From a virus (taxonomy: Duplodnaviria > Heunggongvirae > Uroviricota > Caudoviricetes), in IMG/VR virus record IMGVR_UViG_2734482594_000023: DNA of 7,698 bases. One strand, written 5' to 3'. Under the pieces are notes generated by a model. That model was given only the letters and a program-made list of their open reading frames with translations, ran no database searches and had not been told where the DNA came from. How positions within the stretch are numbered: the first letter of the stretch is position 1; each line of letters starts with the position of its first letter. This document shows positions 1 to 7,681 of the stretch, piece after piece. A program made the position numbers and the translations under genes.

Positions 1-459
1 TTATTCAGTCGGCAGTGCTACGCGCCAGGGGAGCAGTTCGCCGACCCGGTTTATCGGCCAGTCGGCTATGACGTCAAGGACATAGCGGAGGTAGCTTTCT
101 GGCTCCACTCCGTTCAGTTTGCACGTCCCGATCAGGCTGTACAGCAGCGCTCCCCGCTCTCCTCCATGATCCGAACCGAAGAACAGGTAGTTTTTGCGGC
201 CCAGACTGACCATCCGCAACGCATTTTCAGCGATGTTATTGTCCGCCTCAGCCCAGCCATCATCTGCATAGTACGTCAGCGCCGGCCACTGGTTCAGGGC
301 ATATGCGAACGCTTTCGCCAGTTCTGAGTGTCGCGACAGGGTTTTCATCTTTTCACGCAGCCAGCTTTCCAGGGATTTCAGCAGCGGTTTCGTTTTCAAC
401 TGACGTTCGGCAAGGCGCTGTTTCAGCAGGAAGATGTCGTCAGAAGAGATGTCGTTCAT
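1..459 (-). CDS. IS66-family transposase, C-terminal fragment (truncated remnant)
   Basis: The 152-aa ORF carries the conserved C-terminal block of IS66-family transposases (...DNNIAENALRMVSLGRKNYLFFGSDHGGERGALLYSLIGTCKLNGVEPESYLRYVLDVIADWP...ELLPW). The upstream in-frame sequence hits a stop at 520-522, so the N-terminal two-thirds of the transposase and the other IS66 genes are absent on this side. Confidence 0.8.
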   Translation of the reverse strand: MNDISSDDIFLLKQRLAERQLKTKPLLKSLESWLREKMKTLSRHSELAKAFAYALNQWPALTYYADDGWAEADNNIAENALRMVSLGRKNYLFFGSDHGGERGALLYSLIGTCKLNGVEPESYLRYVLDVIADWPINRVGELLPWRVALPTE

Positions 460-677: not shown

Positions 678-1415
678 TCATTCACTCTCTTTCAAACCAG
701 TTTTAACTGTTTGTGGTTTTGGGTAAGGCTGGACTTTGAATAGCTTTGTGTTAAGGCGTTTTCTGGCTCTCTTGTCCAGAAACCGGATGTAACGAAACTG
801 ACGGAATTTATGAACACTGGCTCTGTCGATATTAGCCCGCAGATGTTCACCTCGCTGTCCTCCTCGTTTGATTGCATTCTTGCAAATCTCGTGATACCAC
901 TCGCCATCAAGTTCATAGAATGTTGTTTCATGACTGCCTACATAATCAAAATTGCTTGCCTGGTACACGACACCAAGACAGCCACAACGCTCATCTGCAA
1001 ACGACTGAACCCACTGCACCTGCGGATAAAGTTGTCTGATTAGTTTGAGCGCGTAACTGATTGCCCTTGATTCGGAGTTTCTCGGCATACAGTCATGCAG
1101 CCATAACCGGTTAAGCTCCATATATTCGCGGTTCTGCGTGCCAGTTACGACGCGTGCACCATTGTTTGGATTAAGGGCATAACCCCATTGCATTACGCCA
1201 ACCAGCTCCCGTTCTGAAAATATGCCCAGATGAAGGTAGGAATTATTTACGAAACGATGGCTGTAATGTTTATTGACGACGACCAGCCGGGCCAGCCAGC
1301 AACTTATTGTCTCAACCCGTAACTCACGGGAGCCATAACCGACGATATTGTCGTTATAGTGAATAAGTTCAGGCGTGCTGATGATACGGGATGTAACTTG
1401 CTTTCTGTTCCCCAC
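678..1415 (-). CDS. mom: Mom-family DNA modification protein (adenine carbamoylmethylation, acyltransferase-like); start codon uncertain
   Basis: The ORF lies immediately downstream of, and overlapping, a Com-type zinc-finger gene, as in phage Mu. The proposed GTG start at 1415 gives 245 aa, close to Mu Mom (about 231 aa as I recall), has AAGGAAA 7-9 nt upstream, and sits in the 3' arm of a hairpin. The ORF track extends to a GTG at 1610, which I regard as over-extended; an ATG at 1577 is an alternative. Confidence 0.75.
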
Positions 1416-1569
1416 GACAGGATTTCCTTGTGTATGTGGGGTGCTCTGTGGCGCTCTGAGATGTGATTTGATTGAGGGTTTTACAGCGCGGACATTTAAC
1501 TTCCAGATAACTGAAGCTGGCTCGTGCCAGTAGCTTGTTACAATGTCGGCACCGTATGTTTCGATACAT
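1369..1569 (-). CDS. com: Com-family zinc-finger translational activator of mom
   Basis: The 66-aa product [33 protein letters not shown]... has a CxxC...CxxC zinc-finger layout like Mu Com. AGGAGG lies 10 nt upstream of the ATG at 1569, and the 3' end overlaps the mom start region by about 46 nt. The track's TTG start at 1614 is rejected. Confidence 0.8.
1410..1441 (-). promoter_or_regulatory. mRNA hairpin sequestering the mom GTG start, with the Shine-Dalgarno in the loop (putative Com-responsive translational operator)
   Basis: On the minus strand, CCCCAC (1441-1436) pairs with GTGGGG (1415-1410). The 20-nt loop contains AAGGAAA, and the GTG at 1415-1413 lies in the 3' arm. Confidence 0.45.
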
Positions 1570-1610
1570 GGCCGCATAACCTCCTGCTTTGTTGTTGATA
1601 TCTTTATCAC

Positions 1611-1702
1611 TCAATCGATCGACAAAAACGATCGATTTGATTTATTTAATTGATACAACAAATAACACGAAATGTCATTAGCGAAAATTTATGAGTTTGA
1701 TC
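1611..1702. promoter_or_regulatory. AT-rich divergent control region upstream of com/mom with clustered Dam (GATC) sites and an inverted repeat
   Basis: GATC occurs at 1617-1620, 1630-1633 and 1699-1702. The imperfect inverted repeat TCAATCGATCG-ACAAAAA-CGATCGATTTGA spans 1611-1640. In Mu, mom transcription is controlled by Dam methylation of upstream GATC sites (OxyR binding) and by C-protein activation. Confidence 0.4.
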
Positions 1703-1825
1703 ACTAATTTTAAACGGTGCTGTAACGCATAAGTGCTGAATGATTGTACATTTGAATACCGCAAAGCAAACAAATCAACTAATTTATAGAAGTCAATTGG
1801 TTAATTGCCAGCGTAAGAGGCTGCT

Positions 1826-2119
1826 ATGGACAATCATGTAACGACGAGAAATCGAAAAATGATTGAAAATGCGGAAATCTATAATGATTATTTTTCCGAT
1901 TATTCAGATGCCTGCAAATACAGTTCGAGTGCGGGAGAGTTCATATGCTTCAACTTTTTTATTAAATCTTATGTTTTTCCTCCACAGCAAGAAGATGGAG
2001 GTGTGCCACCTCCTGAAATCACTTTGCACCGTATAGCCTCCGTCTCAATGATGGAGCAACAGGCTAATGAGCTGTATAGCATTCTGGGAACGATTCTACA
2101 AAAGCGTGAATCGGACTAA
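1826..2119 (+). CDS. Hypothetical protein, 97 aa (low-GC orphan gene)
   Basis: ATG at 1826 is preceded by AAGAGG at 5-nt spacing and the frame is open for 97 codons. The gene is AT-rich compared with its neighbours and divergent from com/mom. I recognise no motif. Confidence 0.5.
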   Translation: MDNHVTTRNRKMIENAEIYNDYFSDYSDACKYSSSAGEFICFNFFIKSYVFPPQQEDGGVPPPEITLHRIASVSMMEQQANELYSILGTILQKRESD

Positions 2120-2286
2120 TGATACCGGTTCATTTGCCTGCCCGGATGGGGAAGCAGGATTGACTGCTCCATAAGCAGCTATATTTCTGAATACGAAATA
2201 CTATCCAGCGATTACATATGGCTGGATAGCGGCAAAGATGTTTTCATTAGTGTCAAACCGGCAGAGGACACCACCGGTTTGTATTG

Positions 2287-2541
2287 TTACATCATGGTAC
2301 TGTCAGTTCCGGGCTGAGCCGGGTCTGGTTGCTCTGGCTGCGCGTCGGTTTTCGGCTCATTATCAGCATCACTGGCCGCAACTGCTGGCCCAATAAGTTT
2401 TGCCAGCACTTCATCAACGTAAGTGTCGATTTGTGCCTCAAAATCCTTGCGGACCTGCGCTTTCAGCAACTTATTTACTTCACCGGAATACAGTGCCTGT
2501 TTTACCAGGTCTTCAGTGACGGTGCCTTTAATTTCTGGCAT
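2287..2541 (-). CDS. Hypothetical acidic protein, 84 aa
   Basis: ATG at 2541 has a strong AAGGAGG 7 nt upstream. The product is net acidic (about 16 D/E against 8 K/R) with a Pro/Asp/Glu-rich tail. It lies 35 nt downstream of the small membrane-protein gene, consistent with an operon. Confidence 0.65.
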   Translation of the reverse strand: MPEIKGTVTEDLVKQALYSGEVNKLLKAQVRKDFEAQIDTYVDEVLAKLIGPAVAASDADNEPKTDAQPEQPDPAQPGTDSTMM

Positions 2542-2576
2542 GTATATCCTCCTTATGCGGGAATAAAGCCCTGCAA

Positions 2577-2759
2577 TCAGGGCTGGGTCGGGTCTTTTGG
2601 GAGCGGAGTTACCTGCGCTGTTTTACTGAGTTTTTCAGCTGCTGCGTCCTCAATTTTGCGGCGAACATAATTTCTGATGGCCTTATAACCACCACTCACC
2701 AGATATAACGCACATACTGCCGTGCAGAAATACAATAAAATAAGCTGTAAAAATGTCAT
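2577..2759 (-). CDS. Small single-pass membrane protein, 60 aa
   Basis: ATG at 2759 is preceded by GGGAGGG. The product MTFLQLILLYFCTAVCALYLVSGG has one hydrophobic helix followed by a basic, charged tail (KAIRNYVRRKIED...). The track's TTG start at 2771 is rejected. Confidence 0.55.
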   Translation of the reverse strand: MTFLQLILLYFCTAVCALYLVSGGYKAIRNYVRRKIEDAAAEKLSKTAQVTPLPKDPTQP

Positions 2760-2774
2760 TATCCCTCCCAATTA

Positions 2775-2801
2775 TTGACATGGTGTTGACACCGGTAATA
2801 T
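2775..2801 (+). promoter_or_regulatory. Putative sigma70-type promoter on the plus strand, overlapping a 12-bp palindrome
   Basis: A perfect TTGACA at 2775-2780 is followed by a 15-nt spacer and TAATAT at 2796-2801. A second TTGACA lies at 2786-2791, and GGTGTtgACACC (2782-2793) is palindromic. The short spacer is a weakness. Confidence 0.3.
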
Positions 2802-2855
2802 CTGTTAGGTAAAAAGGTGCACTGCATTTTTTGCTTTGGATATAACGATCTTTTT

Positions 2856-2896
2856 GCCGCCGGTTTCTTGTTTTCCCTTACCGGCGGCATTTTTTT
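2856..2896 (+). terminator. Rho-independent terminator, oriented for the plus strand
   Basis: GCCGCCGGT (2856-2864) pairs with ACCGGCGGC (2880-2888) around a 15-nt loop and is followed by T7 at 2890-2896. On the minus strand the stem is followed by AAAAAG, so it is not a good terminator for the esterase gene. Confidence 0.5.
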
Positions 2897-2903
2897 ATCC
2901 TGC

Positions 2904-4440
2904 TTACGCGTTATTCACTTCCACCACGATACTGTCAATCAGTACCGGGTAAGTCGCATTTTTAGTGATATCGGTCACGCGCAACTTGTCTGCCGTAAAC
3001 GTGCCGACCGGAGACTGCGACAGCATGAATGGTGTCCCGTCCTTACCATCAANNNNNNNNNNNNNNNNNNNNNNNNNNNNNNNNNNNNNNNNNNNNNNNN
3101 NNNNNNNNNNNNNNNNNNNNNNNNNNNNNNNNNNNNNNNNNNNNNNNNNNNNNNNNNNNNNNNNNNNNNNNNNNNNNNNNNNNNNNNNNNNNNNNNNNNN
3201 NNNNNNNNNNNNNNNNNNNNNNNNNNNNNNNNNNNNNNNNNNNNNNNNNNNNNNNNNNNNNNNNNNNNNNNNNNNNNNNNNNNNNNNNNNNNNNNNNNNN
3301 NNNNNNNNNNNNNNNNNNNNNNNNNNNNNNNNNNNNNNNNNNNNNNNNNNNTGAGCCTTGCCACCTCCGGCAGCCCAACCCTGTGGTGTCAACCGTCCTT
3401 CAGACTCAGATGCCCGGTAAGCAAATAGCGTACTCATCGTCGTGGTGTCTGCGGGTGGCGTGGACGGTTTTGATGGTGTATCAGGTGACGGCTTCTCATC
3501 CGGTGGTGTCACGGTCTGCCCACGCATCAGTTCAGCCGTGCGCCCTGCATGGAGCATAATAGCTGAGGCCAGACGGTCTGAAATGACGCCCCTGCGTGCC
3601 CATGAGCTGAAATGGCTGTCACGCTGTGTCGAAACAAAACTGCCCTGGGTTCGGGATGCTGCACCGTAATACCCGACAGCCACAATATCCGGGTCTTCCG
3701 CCGGAGCATTCGTTGGCGTGCNNNNNNNNNNNNNNNNNNNNNNNNNNNNNNNNNNNNNNNNNNNNNNNNNNNNNNNNNNNNNNNNNNNNNNNNNNNNNNN
3801 NNNNNNNNNNNNNNNNNNNNNNNNNNNNNNNNNNNNNNNNNNNNNNNNNNNNNNNNNNNNNNNNNNNNNNNNNNNNNNNNNNNNNNNNNNNNNNNNNNNN
3901 NNNNNNNNNNNNNNNNNNNNNNNNNNNNNNNNNNNNNNNNNNNNNNNNNNNNNNNNNNNNNNNNNNNNNNNNNNNNNNNNNNNNNNNNNNNNNNNNNNNN
4001 NNNNNNNNNNNNNNNNNGCGGTCAAACGAATCCGGTAACGGCAGCCCCTCGCCGTAGGCCATGCCATTTGACTGACCCGCGAGAATGACAACAAAGTAAT
4101 ATTCCGGCTCTGAACTGCTGCCATTCGTGCTACCGGAAGGCCCGGCGTTATCCGGTGCATTCCAGTCGGAGGGCGTGAGCGTTCCGGCCACGTCAGATGT
4201 GATTGGAATGATGCCAGTCACGCCTGAACTGGTGATTTCTGCACTGGGATTACCGGATACCGGCATTACCCATAATGGCTCTTTCGTGCTGAAGCGGATC
4301 ACGCAGTCTGCGAAGGTGATCCCCCCTTTATTACCCGAAGGGCGGAAAGGGCTTTCAATAAATGCCACCGTGCCACCGGCAACCTTGACTGAAAACTCTC
4401 CGGGCATGGCGGAGAGCATTTTCCACTTGGAGTCTGACAT
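2904..4440 (-). CDS. NanS-like sialate O-acetylesterase (SGNH/SASA-type) with an N-terminal extension and a C-terminal Pro/Thr-rich linker plus extra domain; frame ambiguous across masked blocks
   Basis: The N-terminal part (4440->4018) contains YYFVVILAGQSNGMAYGEGLPLPD, the GQSN nucleophile block of SASA/NanS esterases. After the mask, TNAPAEDPD...GYYG...SHFSSWARRGVISDR continues the esterase in a different frame, followed by TPPDEKPSPDTPSKPSTPP and a C-terminal region ending at the TAA at 2904. The span (1537 nt) is not a multiple of 3, so either a frameshift lies in 3722-4017 or the masking is not length-exact. Confidence 0.65.
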
Positions 4441-4516
4441 CGTCTTTTCTGCCTGTTTCTGAATTAAACAGAGTCAGAATAGCGACCGCTGAAAAATATG
4501 TGTTTTGCGGAAATTC

Positions 4517-4544
4517 AAAAAAGCGTCACGGTACTTTTGGTGAC
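4517..4544 (-). terminator. Weak hairpin plus U-run at the invertase stop codon
   Basis: On the minus strand, GTCAC (4544-4540) pairs with GTGAC (4529-4525) across a 10-nt loop, followed by GCTTTTTTG. The stem is short. Confidence 0.25.
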
Positions 4545-5136
4545 GGAGCTGGTGAGGCAGGAAAATAACGATAAAGGNNNNNNNNNNNNNNNNNNNNNNN
4601 NNNNNNNNNNNNNNNNNNNNNNNNNNNNNNNNNNNNNNNNNNNNNNNNNNNNNNNNNNNNNNNNNNNNNNNNNNNNNNNNNNNNNNNNNNNNNNNNNNNN
4701 NNNNNNNNNNNNNNNNNNNNNNNNNNNNNNNNNNNNNNNNNNNNNNNNNNNNNNNNNNNNNNNNNNNNNNNNNNNNNNNNNNNNNNNNNNNNNNNNNNNN
4801 NNNNNNNNNNNNNNNNNNNNNNNNNNNNNNNNNNNNNNNNNNNNNNNNNNNNNNNNNNTTGTCCGTAATGCTGCGGAAGTTAACGCCGCGTTGCCGGAGT
4901 TCTTCTGTTAAAAGGACAAGGTGCTGCATACTGCGTCCAAGGCGATCCAGTTTCCAGACCAGCAGGGTATCCCCTGGCCGGAGTCGCTTTAATGCGCGTT
5001 TAAGTCCGGGACGCTCCCTTGTCTTACCGCTTATTCTGTCTTCGAAAAACAGCTCACATCCTGCACATTCCAGCGCATTTCTTTGTAGCGCCGTATTCTG
5101 GTCATTTGTTGACACCCTGATATACCCAATCAGCAT
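4526..5136 (-). CDS. Site-specific DNA invertase, serine recombinase (Gin/Pin/Cin/Hin family); C-terminal frame differs from the ORF track
   Basis: The N-terminus MLIGYIRVSTNDQNTALQRNALECAGCELFFEDRISGK...LLVWKLDRLGRS is a canonical resolvase/invertase catalytic domain. Left of the mask, the frame reading LYRYFPASPAPSPKVP* (stop at 4528-4526) matches the Hin-type C-terminal helix-turn-helix tail (STLYRYFPAS). The track frame ending at 4474 is rejected. The span is not a multiple of 3 if the masked block is length-exact. Confidence 0.8.
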
Positions 5137-5430
5137 NNNNNNNNNNNNNNNNNNNNNNNNNNNNNNNNNNNNNNNNNNNNNNNNNNNNNNNNNNNNNNNN
5201 NNNNNNNNNNNNNNNNNNNNNNNNNNNNNNNNNNNNNNNNNNNNNNNNNNNNNNNNNNNNNNNNNNNNNNNNNNNNNNNNNNNNNNNNNNNNNNNNNNNN
5301 NNNNNNNNNNNNNNNNNNNNNNNNNNNNNNNNNNNNNNNNNNNNNNNNNNNNNNNNNNNNNNNNNNNNNNNNNNNNNNNNNNNNNNNNNNNNNNNNNNNN
5401 NNNNNNNNNNNNNNNNNNNNNNNNNNNNNN

Positions 5431-5673: not shown

Positions 5674-6195
5674 ATGGAACTAAAAAATATAACCCGTTAT
5701 TATCCTGAAAATATGCCATATGGTAATAATGTTCAGTATTTCCAGAGTGAAGATGGTAAGGATTTCTACGAATCCCTGCCATTATTCACCAAAAAATATA
5801 AACTTTGCATAACACCTGACAGCGGCGTTATCTGCTCAATATCACAGGACGCCTCGGCGCTGTATCCTGCGGGGTTTTCTGTGGTTGAGGTCGATGAACT
5901 CCCTGAAGGCACGGATATTTCAGGAAACTGGAAGTTTGATAATGGCATAATCTCCCGTATTCCGGTTAACTACGCAAGAAAACTGGAAGCAATGCGCCAG
6001 TCATATCTTAATCAGGCATATGAAAAAATTAATGACTGGAGAACGGAGCTACAACTGGGCACCATCAGCGATGAAGACAGAGCAGCACTTACCCAATGGA
6101 TGGCATACATCAGTCAGGTGAAGAAAATGGAACTACCCGCCATTAAAACAGAAGCTGAATTTAACGCCATTAAATGGCCTGAGCAGCCACAGTAA
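5674..6195 (+). CDS. Tail fibre assembly protein (Tfa / Mu U / P2 G-like chaperone)
   Basis: ATG at 5674 has AGGAGG 5 nt upstream. The 173-aa product sits 60 nt after the alternative fibre tip, and its size, position and C-terminal region (...WMAYISQVKKMELPAIKTEAEFNAIKWPEQP) fit the Tfa family. Confidence 0.75.
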   Translation: MELKNITRYYPENMPYGNNVQYFQSEDGKDFYESLPLFTKKYKLCITPDSGVICSISQDASALYPAGFSVVEVDELPEGTDISGNWKFDNGIISRIPVNYARKLEAMRQSYLNQAYEKINDWRTELQLGTISDEDRAALTQWMAYISQVKKMELPAIKTEAEFNAIKWPEQPQ

Positions 6196-6226: not shown

Positions 6227-7108
6227 TTATATACTTGCAGCCGTCACCCATGCTCCATTTAACAGATACTGCAACGGCCGGTAATACACGCCGCCGACGT
6301 TATCTGCCGTATTCTTACCGACATCCTGTACTTTAATTCCGGTAAGAACATTGCCGCCCCCCAGATTCAGATCCCAGCTTTCCCATGTTCCGGGCATATG
6401 TGCGGTCACCGACCCCAGTCTTATGGCGGTTACTGTTCCTGATGAGATAGTGATATCCTGCGTCCCGTCAAAGGGAACACCATTAATTGTGTGGGCATTT
6501 GCCAGCCTGTTCGCGGCAACGGCGGTGCCGTCCGATGGCAGGGCATTCGCCGCCCTGTTTACCGTTTCCCGTAAACCGACGTTATCGATAAAAGCCCCTT
6601 TATCCGGAATGTCTGCGCCGTTCTGCTCCCTGCGCAGGTAACGGTTATCACCTTCGCTTTTGCTGTAAACATCCAGATTATTACGGGCGGTTCCCTTATT
6701 CTCCAGGTCGGCGAGATTCTGATCCTTCGCCAGGGCATTAACGTCAGCGGGACCAAGACTGTTTTTTGTGGCAAGCGTCCCCAGACCAAGATAACCACGG
6801 GCCAGACGCTGGGCCTCCGCACCGGCATCAGCAATTTCTTTCAGGTTATTTTTCCGGGAAAAGGCATTCGCAGCGATAATGGCTTTAATGGACAGCGTAA
6901 GCTGGTTTAACTGCGCCTTATCCGGCTGAATACTGGCTTCAGCCAGAATATTCAGCAGTTCGGCCTGGAGAATATTCAGCCAGTCCTGACCAATCCAGCT
7001 GATACCTTTTTGTCCGTCACCTTCGGTAAACCAGGTGGTGGTATTACTCTGCGCCGGTGCCAGCGCAGGCATATTCGCCACGCCGGAATTATTATCAACA
7101 TGAAACAT
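6227..7108 (-). CDS. Tail fibre protein (constant N-terminal part plus variable C-terminal tip in its current orientation)
   Basis: ATG at 7108 has GAGGAGA 8 nt upstream, 15 nt after the stop of the upstream baseplate gene. The 293-aa product has an N-terminus [18 protein letters not shown]...WFTEG...[15 protein letters not shown] that I read as the fibre type found in Mu/P2-like phages (from memory), and the crossover site falls in the codons for FIDNVGLRE. Confidence 0.8.
6566..6591. other. gix/hix-like 26-bp recombination (crossover) site for the serine invertase
   Basis: TTCCCGTAAACC-GA-CGTTATCGATAA compared with Mu gixL TTCCTGTAAACC-GA-GGTTTTGGATAA (as recalled) matches at 22 of 26 positions with the same half-site/2-bp core layout. 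It lies inside the tail-fibre ORF at the constant/variable junction. Confidence 0.6.
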
Positions 7109-7123
7109 TAAATAGTCTCCTCT

Positions 7124-7681
7124 TCATGGCTNNNNNNNNNNNNNNNNNNNNNNNNNNNNNNNNNNNNNNNNNNNNNNNNNNNNNNNNNNNNNNNNNNNNN
7201 NNNNNNNNNNNNNNNNNNNNNNNNNNNNNNNNNNNNNNNNNNNNNNNNNNNNNNNNNNNNNNNNNNNNNNNNNNNNNNNNNNNNNNNNNNNNNNNNNNNN
7301 NNNNNNNNNNNNNNNNNNNNNNNNNNNNNNNNNNNNNNNNNNNNNNNNNNNNNNNNNNNNNNNNNNNNNNNNNNNNNNNNNNNNCGAGGGCTTCATCCGG
7401 TATTTATTTCCGGCATAACGCTGTCGCTCCGTGAGGGTGGCTCCGGCCATATCACACTCGGGAAGCCCGAGATAACGCTCCCAGTCTTCCAGCAGCAGGC
7501 GCGACGTGTCAGGGAAACGCTCGGCAAGCAGCTGTTTACCCGTCCAGGATACACGCGCTGTCGAATGACTGAGGCCCAGACATAATGATGCCAGTACGGA
7601 TGACGGACGCTTGTCCCATGCCAGCCCGTCAGGCAGTAACTGCAACAGGGCGCGCTGATGCGGGGTCAGGGTTACAGCCAT
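7124..7681 (-). CDS. Phage baseplate/tail protein (P2 gpI / Mu gp48-like, DUF2313-type); C-terminal half masked
   Basis: ATG at 7681 has AGGAGA 7 nt upstream. The N-terminus MAVTLTPHQRALLQLLPDGLAWDKRP...LLEDWERYLGLPE resembles the gpI/gp48 family. The gene sits directly upstream of the tail-fibre gene, as in P2 (I-H-G) and Mu (48-S-U). The TGA at 7126-7124 is in frame only if the masked block is length-exact. Confidence 0.65.
   Translation of the reverse strand: MAVTLTPHQRALLQLLPDGLAWDKRPSSVLASLCLGLSHSTARVSWTGKQLLAERFPDTSRLLLEDWERYLGLPECDMAGATLTERQRYAGNKYRMKPSXXXXXXXXXXXXXXXXXXXXXXXXXXXXXXXXXXXXXXXXXXXXXXXXXXXXXXXXXXXXXXXXXXXXXXXXXXXXXXXXXXXXXP

Follow-up and report, generated by a model that had tools for sequence, protein, structure and literature searches.

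The window analysed here, a stretch of 7,698 nucleotides (nt) from the IMG/VR virus record IMGVR_UViG_2734482594_000023, carries on its plus strand, at 2786–2896, what is probably a free-standing small-RNA (sRNA) gene, borne as cargo by a Mu-like Escherichia coli prophage and representing an allele of the O157 sRNA EcOnc33, likely of the trans-acting, Hfq-binding type. The direct basis for this reading is the anatomy of the sequence, its conservation, its homology and the experiments published on its homologues, and from these we infer the expression, Hfq binding, exact 5′ end and targets of the window allele. That the gene is real is very likely; as prophage sRNA genes go it is fairly ordinary, and it brings no new class of mechanism. 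An earlier note on this DNA, made from the letters alone, had proposed a possible small RNA at this site, and the proposal is now well supported by an RNA that is 85% identical to EcOnc33 and lies in the same slot and orientation as the experimentally validated sRNAs PasA and PasC.

EcOnc33 is encoded in prophage Sp6 of E. coli O157 Sakai and is listed, together with EcOnc37 of prophage Sp18, among the Hfq-crosslinked candidate sRNAs of that strain (Tree et al. 2014, PMC4104026). It produced an Hfq peak in five of five data sets obtained by UV crosslinking and analysis of cDNA (CRAC), has a predicted rho-independent terminator and gave a northern band of ∼71 nt (Tree et al. 2014 Mol Cell, Table S2, PMC4104026), and it was found in hybrids with mRNAs by RNase E crosslinking, ligation and sequencing of hybrids (CLASH; Waters et al. 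2017 EMBO J, PMC5286369). CLASH reads labelled EcOnc33, such as CTGCATGTTTTGCTTTGGATATAAC and ATTTGCCGCCGGTTCTGGCTCCTTG, were retrieved from the latter study with pieces of the O157 sequence and map to the intergenic region between the Sp6 esterase and DUF1378 genes, on the antisense strand, where coordinates in the two genome versions are offset by 141 nt. Identity between the predicted window RNA and EcOnc33 is 85% (z 12 against shuffles), as compared with only 50–57% (z 1–3) for EcOnc37, PasA, and PasC, and the window is therefore taken to carry an EcOnc33 allele. Both RNAs occupy the intergenic esterase–DUF1378 site on the strand opposite both genes, and share the conserved promoter elements, a 5′ CTGCAT, the terminator stem, and the loop block CUUGUUUUCCCU. 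The differences comprise the phage background (lambdoid for EcOnc33, Mu-like for the window copy), RNA position 7 (2828), which is U in the window and G in EcOnc33, the linker before the terminator, GAUCUUUUU in the window and GACAUUU in EcOnc33, and the terminator itself, which in the window has a shorter loop and one extra stem pair. The Sakai equivalent of the predicted unit is 80 nt in length, against the ∼71-nt northern estimate, and the window unit is 75 nt.

Of 5426 complete E. coli genomes, 357 contain the 144-nt intergenic region that holds the unit, with at least 99% identity in 21, 80–90% in 326 (mostly O157:H7), and 60–80% in 10. In O157:H7 the copy is 81% identical over 144 nt and is flanked by the esterase and DUF1378 genes in the late region of a lambdoid prophage. 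A scan of genome contigs with the DUF1378 protein gave no match, and one with the esterase C terminus gave one poor locus. When 77 IMG/VR loci, found by searching with the esterase C terminus, were combined with the E. coli loci, 22 distinct versions of the intergenic region were obtained. All 22, including those whose bodies cannot be aligned, consist of TTGAC[ATG], a spacer of 17 or 18 nt, the box [TGC]A[AG]AAA, a body of 64–104 nt, a stable hairpin, and a run of at least seven T residues.

Inspection of 2400–3300 revealed two perfect TTGACA hexamers, at 2775–2780 and 2786–2791, the first of which had been paired in the earlier note with a TAATAT −10 element. All of the motifs listed there (the TTGACA, the TAATAT, the hairpin and the T7) are present, but as a promoter the pair suffers from a sub-optimal 15-nt spacer and from hexamers that are not conserved. 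They read TTGATA and TAATAC in EcOnc33 (the O157 allele); the first is TTGATA, TTAATA or TCGACA in most EcOnc33-type variants, and the second is TAATAC in every other EcOnc33-type variant that has the segment. In one sub-type (L024/L073) the 11 nt between the TTGACA copies are missing, leaving a single TTGACA located 17 nt from TAAAAA and no counterpart of TAATAT. The TAAAAA-type box downstream of the second hexamer matches TATAAT at four of six positions and lacks the final T; because its spacing is fixed in all variants, it is the likely −10 element. Comparison of the variants places the RNA start ∼6 nt from this box.

PasA and PasC have mapped 5′ ends (CTGCC) that align to the window CTGC at 2822, and three independent EcOnc33 CLASH fragments start at 1557128–1557130, within C(C)TGCATG, matching window 2821/2822, whereas GTCCTGCATG occurs in no EcOnc33 read in the hybrid tables of Waters et al. 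2017. As CLASH ends otherwise arise by RNase trimming, a fragment end held in common suggests a native 5′ end. Because the PasA and PasC starts and the EcOnc33 CLASH 5′ ends all align to 2821/2822, the RNA is placed at ∼2822–2896 and is thus more likely to be ∼75 nt than the ∼90 nt given in the earlier note, whose promoter and length were probably wrong by 11–14 nt. The promoter used is probably not the pair first proposed but 2786–2791 with 2810–2815.

The RNA at 2822–2896 is predicted to fold at −23.0 kcal/mol (z −4.6, with none of 200 shuffles as good), and the longer segment 2808–2898 has a fold z of −3.6. The predicted fold consists of an open, U-rich 5′ part (2822–2854) with two weak hairpins, followed by the terminator. 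The terminator hairpin forms on both strands, but only the plus strand has a U tail, the minus strand continuing into AAAAAGAUCG. Its orientation for the plus strand, as stated in the earlier note, therefore stands, as does the statement that no plus-strand coding gene is available to use it, the nearest annotated plus-strand gene upstream ending at 2119 with two minus-strand genes intervening. The possibility that the hairpin is the terminator of the esterase gene was rejected, there being no U tract on the esterase strand. A promoter and terminator consensus scan of the window, set to spacers of 16–18 nt and hairpin loops of up to 8 nt, reported neither the promoter of the earlier note (15-nt spacer) nor the terminator (loop longer than 8 nt). 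Promoter-like sites number 8 in the window and 8.3 are expected from shuffles; as they are just as frequent in shuffled sequence, motifs alone prove nothing.

The 10 EcOnc33-type variants all have one and the same stem sequence and the same loop block CTTGTTTTCCCT, although the surrounding linker and the loop length vary, and none of 12 pairs has a double change. Across types, different stems (GCCGCCGG, CCCGCC, ACCGCCAGCG, and AGCCAGCG) are found at the same position. Many EcOnc33 CLASH fragments span the terminator stem and loop, and no coding sequence overlaps the loop block. Conservation of the block exceeds what a terminator needs, and CUUGUUUUCCCU may be a second site of interaction or of contact with Hfq.

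Table 1. Coordinates of the predicted sRNA gene, its control elements and the adjoining genes in the window
Feature	Position	Strand	Remarks
−35 hexamer TTGACA (conserved one)	2786..2791	+	Aligns with TTGACA upstream of PasA, PasC, the second PP2 unit and EcOnc33
−10-like A-rich box TAAAAA	2810..2815	+	18 nt 3′ of the −35 hexamer; putative −10 role from fixed spacing
Predicted ∼75-nt sRNA, EcOnc33 allele	2822..2896	+	5′ end predicted to ∼2 nt; 3′ end inside the T run
U-rich, mostly unpaired 5′ part, candidate seed	2822..2854	+	Segment used in EcOnc33 CLASH hybrids
Terminator hairpin	2855..2889	+	10-bp GC-rich stem, UGCCGCCGGU (2855–2864) with ACCGGCGGCA (2880–2889)
Terminator loop, 15 nt	2865..2879	+	Contains the block CUUGUUUUCCCU
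T7 tract, terminator tail, likely Hfq-binding 3′ end	2890..2896	+	Read in the sequence
Upstream TTGACA (−35 of the earlier note)	2775..2780	+	Present; mostly altered in EcOnc33-type variants
TAATAT (−10 of the earlier note)	2796..2801	+	15 nt after 2775–2780
SASA/DUF6645 carbohydrate (sialate-type) esterase, 684 aa	2904..4440	−	Pfam PF03629 and PF20350 on an identical full-length copy; collinear with NZ_AP022815
DUF1378 small membrane protein, 60 aa, hydrophobic N terminus	2577..2759	−	Pfam PF07125, E 9e-32; annotated in RefSeq on the identical sequence
DUF1378 start	ATG at 2759	−	Shine-Dalgarno GGGAGGG at 2764–2770
DUF826, second cassette gene	2287..2541	−	Pfam PF05696, E 6e-16; annotated in RefSeq

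Among other known sRNAs, EcOnc37 is the intergenic RNA of the Mu-like Sakai prophage Sp18 (its CLASH reads were mapped as for EcOnc33), was Hfq-bound in five of five data sets and formed CLASH hybrids. It resembles the window locus in its Mu-like setting, in the order invertase, esterase, sRNA, DUF1378, DUF826, Com, and Mom with equal sRNA orientation, in its TTGAC-N18-TAAAAA promoter, and in a terminator that abuts the esterase stop codon. As a direct homologue, however, it was rejected in favour of EcOnc33, the true homologue, as the RNA bodies do not align (51% identity, z 1.8); EcOnc37 is ∼94 nt in length and has an additional 5′ hairpin. Between the window and Sp18 (L007) the flanks are ∼79% identical, 2733–2879, comprising the sRNA promoter and body, has no counterpart, and homology restarts within the 3′ arm of the terminator; the boundaries of the exchange are sharp. 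On this comparison, the RNA module has been exchanged between the two prophage lineages.

PasA and PasC of the enteropathogenic strain E2348/69 were validated by northern blot, depend on Hfq for stability (Pearl Mizrahi et al. 2021, PMC8550237), and lie, on the opposite strand, just beyond the 3′ end of an esterase gene in a ‘> < >’ layout (PMC8550237, Table S6). Their position downstream of the esterase was confirmed on the E2348/69 genome, and ‘sialic acid esterase, PasA/PasC, holin, lysozyme’ has been given as the typical arrangement (Zhu, Shabalina & Storz, bioRxiv 2026). Together with their homologues EcOnc51 and EcOnc52 in enterohaemorrhagic E. coli (EHEC), namely O157 Sakai, they share with the window RNA a slot that directly follows a phage SASA esterase gene and is convergent with it, and PasA and PasC also share a homologous promoter region (TTGACA...CTGT...AAA...CTGC). 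They are Hfq-dependent RNAs of 77–85 nt, with an intrinsic terminator and U tail at the 3′ end. Body and terminator, on the other hand, differ from those of the window RNA (57% identity, z 1.5–2.9), and what follows downstream is not DUF1378 but a holin gene or an insertion sequence (IS) element. A blastn search with a word size of 7 produced no match of PasA or PasC to the window intergenic region, only the promoter and the 5′ CTGC being alignable, and the window RNA falls outside the PasA/PasC family as delimited by Zhu et al. (blastn, at least 75% query coverage). In prophage PP2 of E2348/69, an unnamed second unit (L003 2358–2490, minus strand; TTGACA...GAAAAA...AGCCAGCG hairpin and T7) sits between PasA and the esterase stop codon and coincides with the ‘minor’ 236-nt PasA 3′ end. 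The slot downstream of the esterase can hold two sRNA units in tandem.

At permissive E-values (up to 10), Rfam produced in the window only a chance-level match to Esr41 (RF02676; 22.2 bits, E 0.97, where the gathering score is 102) and an irrelevant one to IS102. Esr41 is an EHEC sRNA of similar size, also with a U-rich body and a GC terminator, but is encoded on the unrelated island SpLE1. AgvB and AsxR (RF02702 and RF02703) are likewise short, prophage-encoded, Hfq-bound RNAs from the ‘moron’ area of the late region, opposing late transcription, yet are only 51–60 nt in length and occupy a slot between PR′/stx and the esterase gene; their covariance models, with a conserved 3′ region of ∼42 nt, found no match in the window at E-values up to 10. 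At the gathering threshold, Rfam identified only STnc100 and tRNAs in the related loci, and none of these in the intergenic region. The STnc100/PasD-type sRNA genes lie upstream of the esterase in lambdoid copies (L005 6226–6392 and L006 6291–6488), and Rfam gave no such match in the Mu-like window.

The 3′ U tail and a U-rich stretch before the hairpin form the usual Hfq-binding module of such sRNAs, and the window RNA retains both the U7 tail and the U-rich stretch. In the mechanism proposed for the window locus, a sigma-70-type promoter (TTGACA at 2786–2791 and TAAAAA at 2810–2815) would start transcription at ∼2821/2822, and the GC-rich hairpin (2855–2889) with the U7 tract (2890–2896) would end it, giving an RNA of ∼75 nt. 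Like EcOnc33, PasA, and PasC, this RNA would most likely be an Hfq binder, the contacts being made by its terminator U tail and by the U-rich stretch that precedes the hairpin, and it would pair in trans with host mRNAs through its unstructured 5′ part and possibly through the conserved CU-rich terminator loop. As transcription would be convergent with the esterase gene and run against phage late transcription, the RNA would probably be made mainly in the lysogen.

The 5′ segment of EcOnc33 is found in CLASH hybrids with arcA, ECs2310, and ECs0890. In one of these the extreme 5′ end of EcOnc33 is joined to ATTTAGGTAGCAAACATGCAGACCC, which comprises the ribosome-binding site and start codon of ECs_5359 (arcA); the counts in the EcOnc33–arcA row, 5 and 2, are read as five hybrids in two data sets, the columns having been taken without headers. 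The complementary stretch is CUGCAUGUUU. The duplex predicted with the arcA start region has an energy of −17.5 kcal/mol for the window RNA as compared with −23.4 kcal/mol for EcOnc33, and is equalled by 35 of 300 shuffles for the former and by 4 of 300 for the latter.

Several points weigh against the reading of the locus as an expressed, trans-acting EcOnc33 allele. By these predictions the U in place of G at seed position 7 weakens the best-supported EcOnc33 pairing, that with arcA, and the targets of the window RNA may differ. The EcOnc33 targets are themselves putative, coming from CLASH supplementary tables with columns read without headers. Promoter strength is uncertain, as the −10-like box is without the usually conserved final T, and the mature 5′ end of PasA may be processed from a longer transcript (Zhu et al.). 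Expression of the window allele is predicted from its sequence and its homologues. The structure is argued from thermodynamics and from unlike stems recurring at one position, the EcOnc33-type group having no covariation.

Of the other explanations, action mainly in cis is the one with the most to recommend it, albeit still unlikely. Here the RNA would act on DUF1378 and DUF826, genes of the lambdoid lysis cassette, through antisense pairing, RNase III cleavage or transcriptional interference, all of which are compatible with action in trans. The RNA is perfectly complementary to a late transcript reading through from the esterase into DUF1378, its promoter fires head-on against such a transcript, and this convergent, fully overlapping geometry is kept in every context examined. 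A consensus scan found no minus-strand promoter within the intergenic region, and DUF1378 is therefore probably co-transcribed through the sRNA gene; the hairpin, which has no U tail on the minus strand, would let the read-through transcript pass. The listed target sites of PasA also include the 3′ ends of two esterase genes. The overlap nevertheless stops 63 nt upstream of the DUF1378 start codon and leaves the ribosome-binding site uncovered, and the homologues are classical Hfq sRNAs in their behaviour and have many partners in trans. Moreover, the slot is retained where a holin gene or an IS element follows it, and in the Mu-like context there are no downstream lysis genes to control. An effect in cis is thus possible as a secondary role of the window RNA, one that does not exclude action in trans.

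The earlier note had likened the arrangement to a type I toxin-antitoxin system or antisense control. Type I systems with divergent antitoxin RNAs include TisB/IstR-1 and ZorO/OrzO, in which, as in the window, a gene for a small hydrophobic protein stands beside a divergent small RNA. That DUF1378, at 60 aa and with a hydrophobic N terminus, is a small membrane toxin with the plus-strand RNA as its antitoxin is nonetheless highly improbable, the resemblance to TisB/IstR-1 or Zor/Orz being superficial, and the proposal was rejected. The promoter paired in the earlier note does overlap the DUF1378 Shine-Dalgarno and 5′ leader, as was said there for the 5′ end of the gene, but not the annotated coding sequence, and the RNA (2822–2896) lies outside the gene and its Shine-Dalgarno (2577–2770); unlike in type I systems, there is neither overlap nor complementarity with the putative toxin initiation region. 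The duplex predicted between the RNA and that region is matched by 156 of 300 shuffles for the full RNA and by 292 of 300 for nt 1–35, and pairing with the minus-strand DUF1378 leader, which the earlier note had singled out for prediction, is thus at the level of chance. No separate toxin promoter or long 5′ untranslated region is evident. Linkage to DUF1378 is not obligatory, as PasA (with a holin neighbour) and PasC (with an IS4 transposase neighbour) fill the slot without it, and DUF1378 is a regular member of lambdoid late/lysis regions and no stand-alone module. These results count also against a dedicated antisense RNA. Activity of the upstream promoter (2775–2780/2796–2801), alone or along with the conserved one, would give an ∼88-nt RNA from ∼2808. 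Both of its hexamers are near consensus here, unlike in most relatives, and the additional 14 nt would form a 5′ hairpin of an A-run and a U-run with 2826–2835; with the short spacer and the lack of conservation described above, and with the EcOnc33 size and CLASH 5′ ends fitting the downstream start, this is improbable. It is more doubtful still that the locus is a relic, copied with its cassette from a lambdoid phage and no longer expressed, in which the hairpin would do no more than stabilise the esterase mRNA at its 3′ end. The cassette does lie in a foreign context, without holin and lysozyme genes, and expression of the window allele is a prediction; against this, the locus retains an intact promoter hexamer, A-rich box, 5′ CTGC, terminator, and U7, the Mu-like Sp18 counterpart EcOnc37 is bound by Hfq and found in hybrids, and the nearly identical copies are kept in 21 genomes.

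The free-standing, trans-acting sRNA gene thus preferred lies at the right end of a Mu-like prophage. Window 550–7698 matches the Mu-like prophage end of E. coli JE86-ST05 (NZ_AP022815) at 99.5–100% wherever it is unmasked. Minus-strand genes run from those for the baseplate and tail fibres, with an invertible segment, through a Gin-type invertase, the esterase, the 144-nt intergenic region, and DUF1378 to DUF826; beyond DUF826 are a plus-strand open reading frame (ORF) without assigned function, then Com and Mom. The Sakai prophage Sp18 has the same gene layout. The esterase–sRNA–DUF1378–DUF826 block (2287–4440 within 678–5136) normally belongs to the lambdoid late region, before holin and lysozyme, whereas in the window and in Sp18 it sits between the Gin-type invertase and com-mom, without holin or lysozyme genes. 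The cassette is common to unrelated phage types.

Further observations concern the remainder of the window. The runs of N (3053–3351, 3722–4017, 4578–4858, 5137–5430, and 7132–7384) do not preserve length but take the place of longer real sequence, including the runs inside the esterase gene (for example, 419 bases became 299 N, and 694 became 296 N), and ORFs or frames listed across them are artefacts. The segment 4526–7108 is G-segment-like: a tail-fibre C-terminal ORF (6227–7108, minus strand) faces a tail-fibre assembly gene (5674–6195, plus strand), with a partial tail-protein copy (87% inverted repeat, 6453–6596) and the invertase gene alongside. A Com-like zinc-finger ORF (1369–1614, minus strand) overlaps the start of a Mom-like ORF (678–1610, minus strand); the near-identical RefSeq copy has a frameshift annotation for com and gives mom 235 aa. 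Just upstream of com-mom, at 1613–1637 (and within 1600–1660, minus strand), is a perfect 9-bp palindrome, AATCGATCG-N7-CGATCGATT, with GATC sites, which was the source of the chance-level IS102 match in Rfam. It is reminiscent of the region through which Dam methylation and OxyR control the mom promoter of phage Mu. Positions 1–459 (minus strand) encode the C-terminal part of an IS66-family transposase ORF, and 1–549 is unlike JE86-ST05, where the prophage end abuts ybfB/rhsC, which points to a different strain or an IS-disrupted junction.

The EcOnc33 RNA type was detected in 2014 (PMC4104026) and in 2017 (PMC5286369), in supplementary tables only. It goes by no name other than EcOnc33, has no Rfam family and no genome annotation at the matched loci, and full-text literature searches with EcOnc33, EcOnc37, and the RNA sequence found no functional study of it. 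With the window copy, the type gains both a new allele and a new phage background. As far as was found, the promoter and slot architecture common to EcOnc33, EcOnc37, PasA, and PasC is apparently unstated in the literature; Zhu et al. connect only PasA with PasC. We tentatively put forward, at somewhat less than even likelihood, a modular ‘sRNA slot’ in which a fixed promoter (TTGACA-N17/18-TAAAAA-CTGC) and a terminator/Hfq handle would frame bodies that are swapped or mutated. EcOnc33, EcOnc37, PasA, PasC, EcOnc51/52, and the unnamed types would then be one superfamily moving between lambdoid and Mu-like phages, the window RNA would be a G7-to-U seed variant retargeted away from arcA, and the CU-rich loop would be a second conserved interaction site.

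In pathogenic E. coli, host regulation is rewired by prophage-encoded Hfq sRNAs such as AgvB, AsxR, Esr41, and the Pas RNAs. The present locus extends the EcOnc33 type beyond the lambdoid phages of O157, to Mu-like prophages of non-O157 strains, and reveals that published sRNAs described separately have one promoter and slot architecture in common. The natural seed polymorphism beside the CLASH-supported arcA site provides a simple, testable case of allele-specific targeting.

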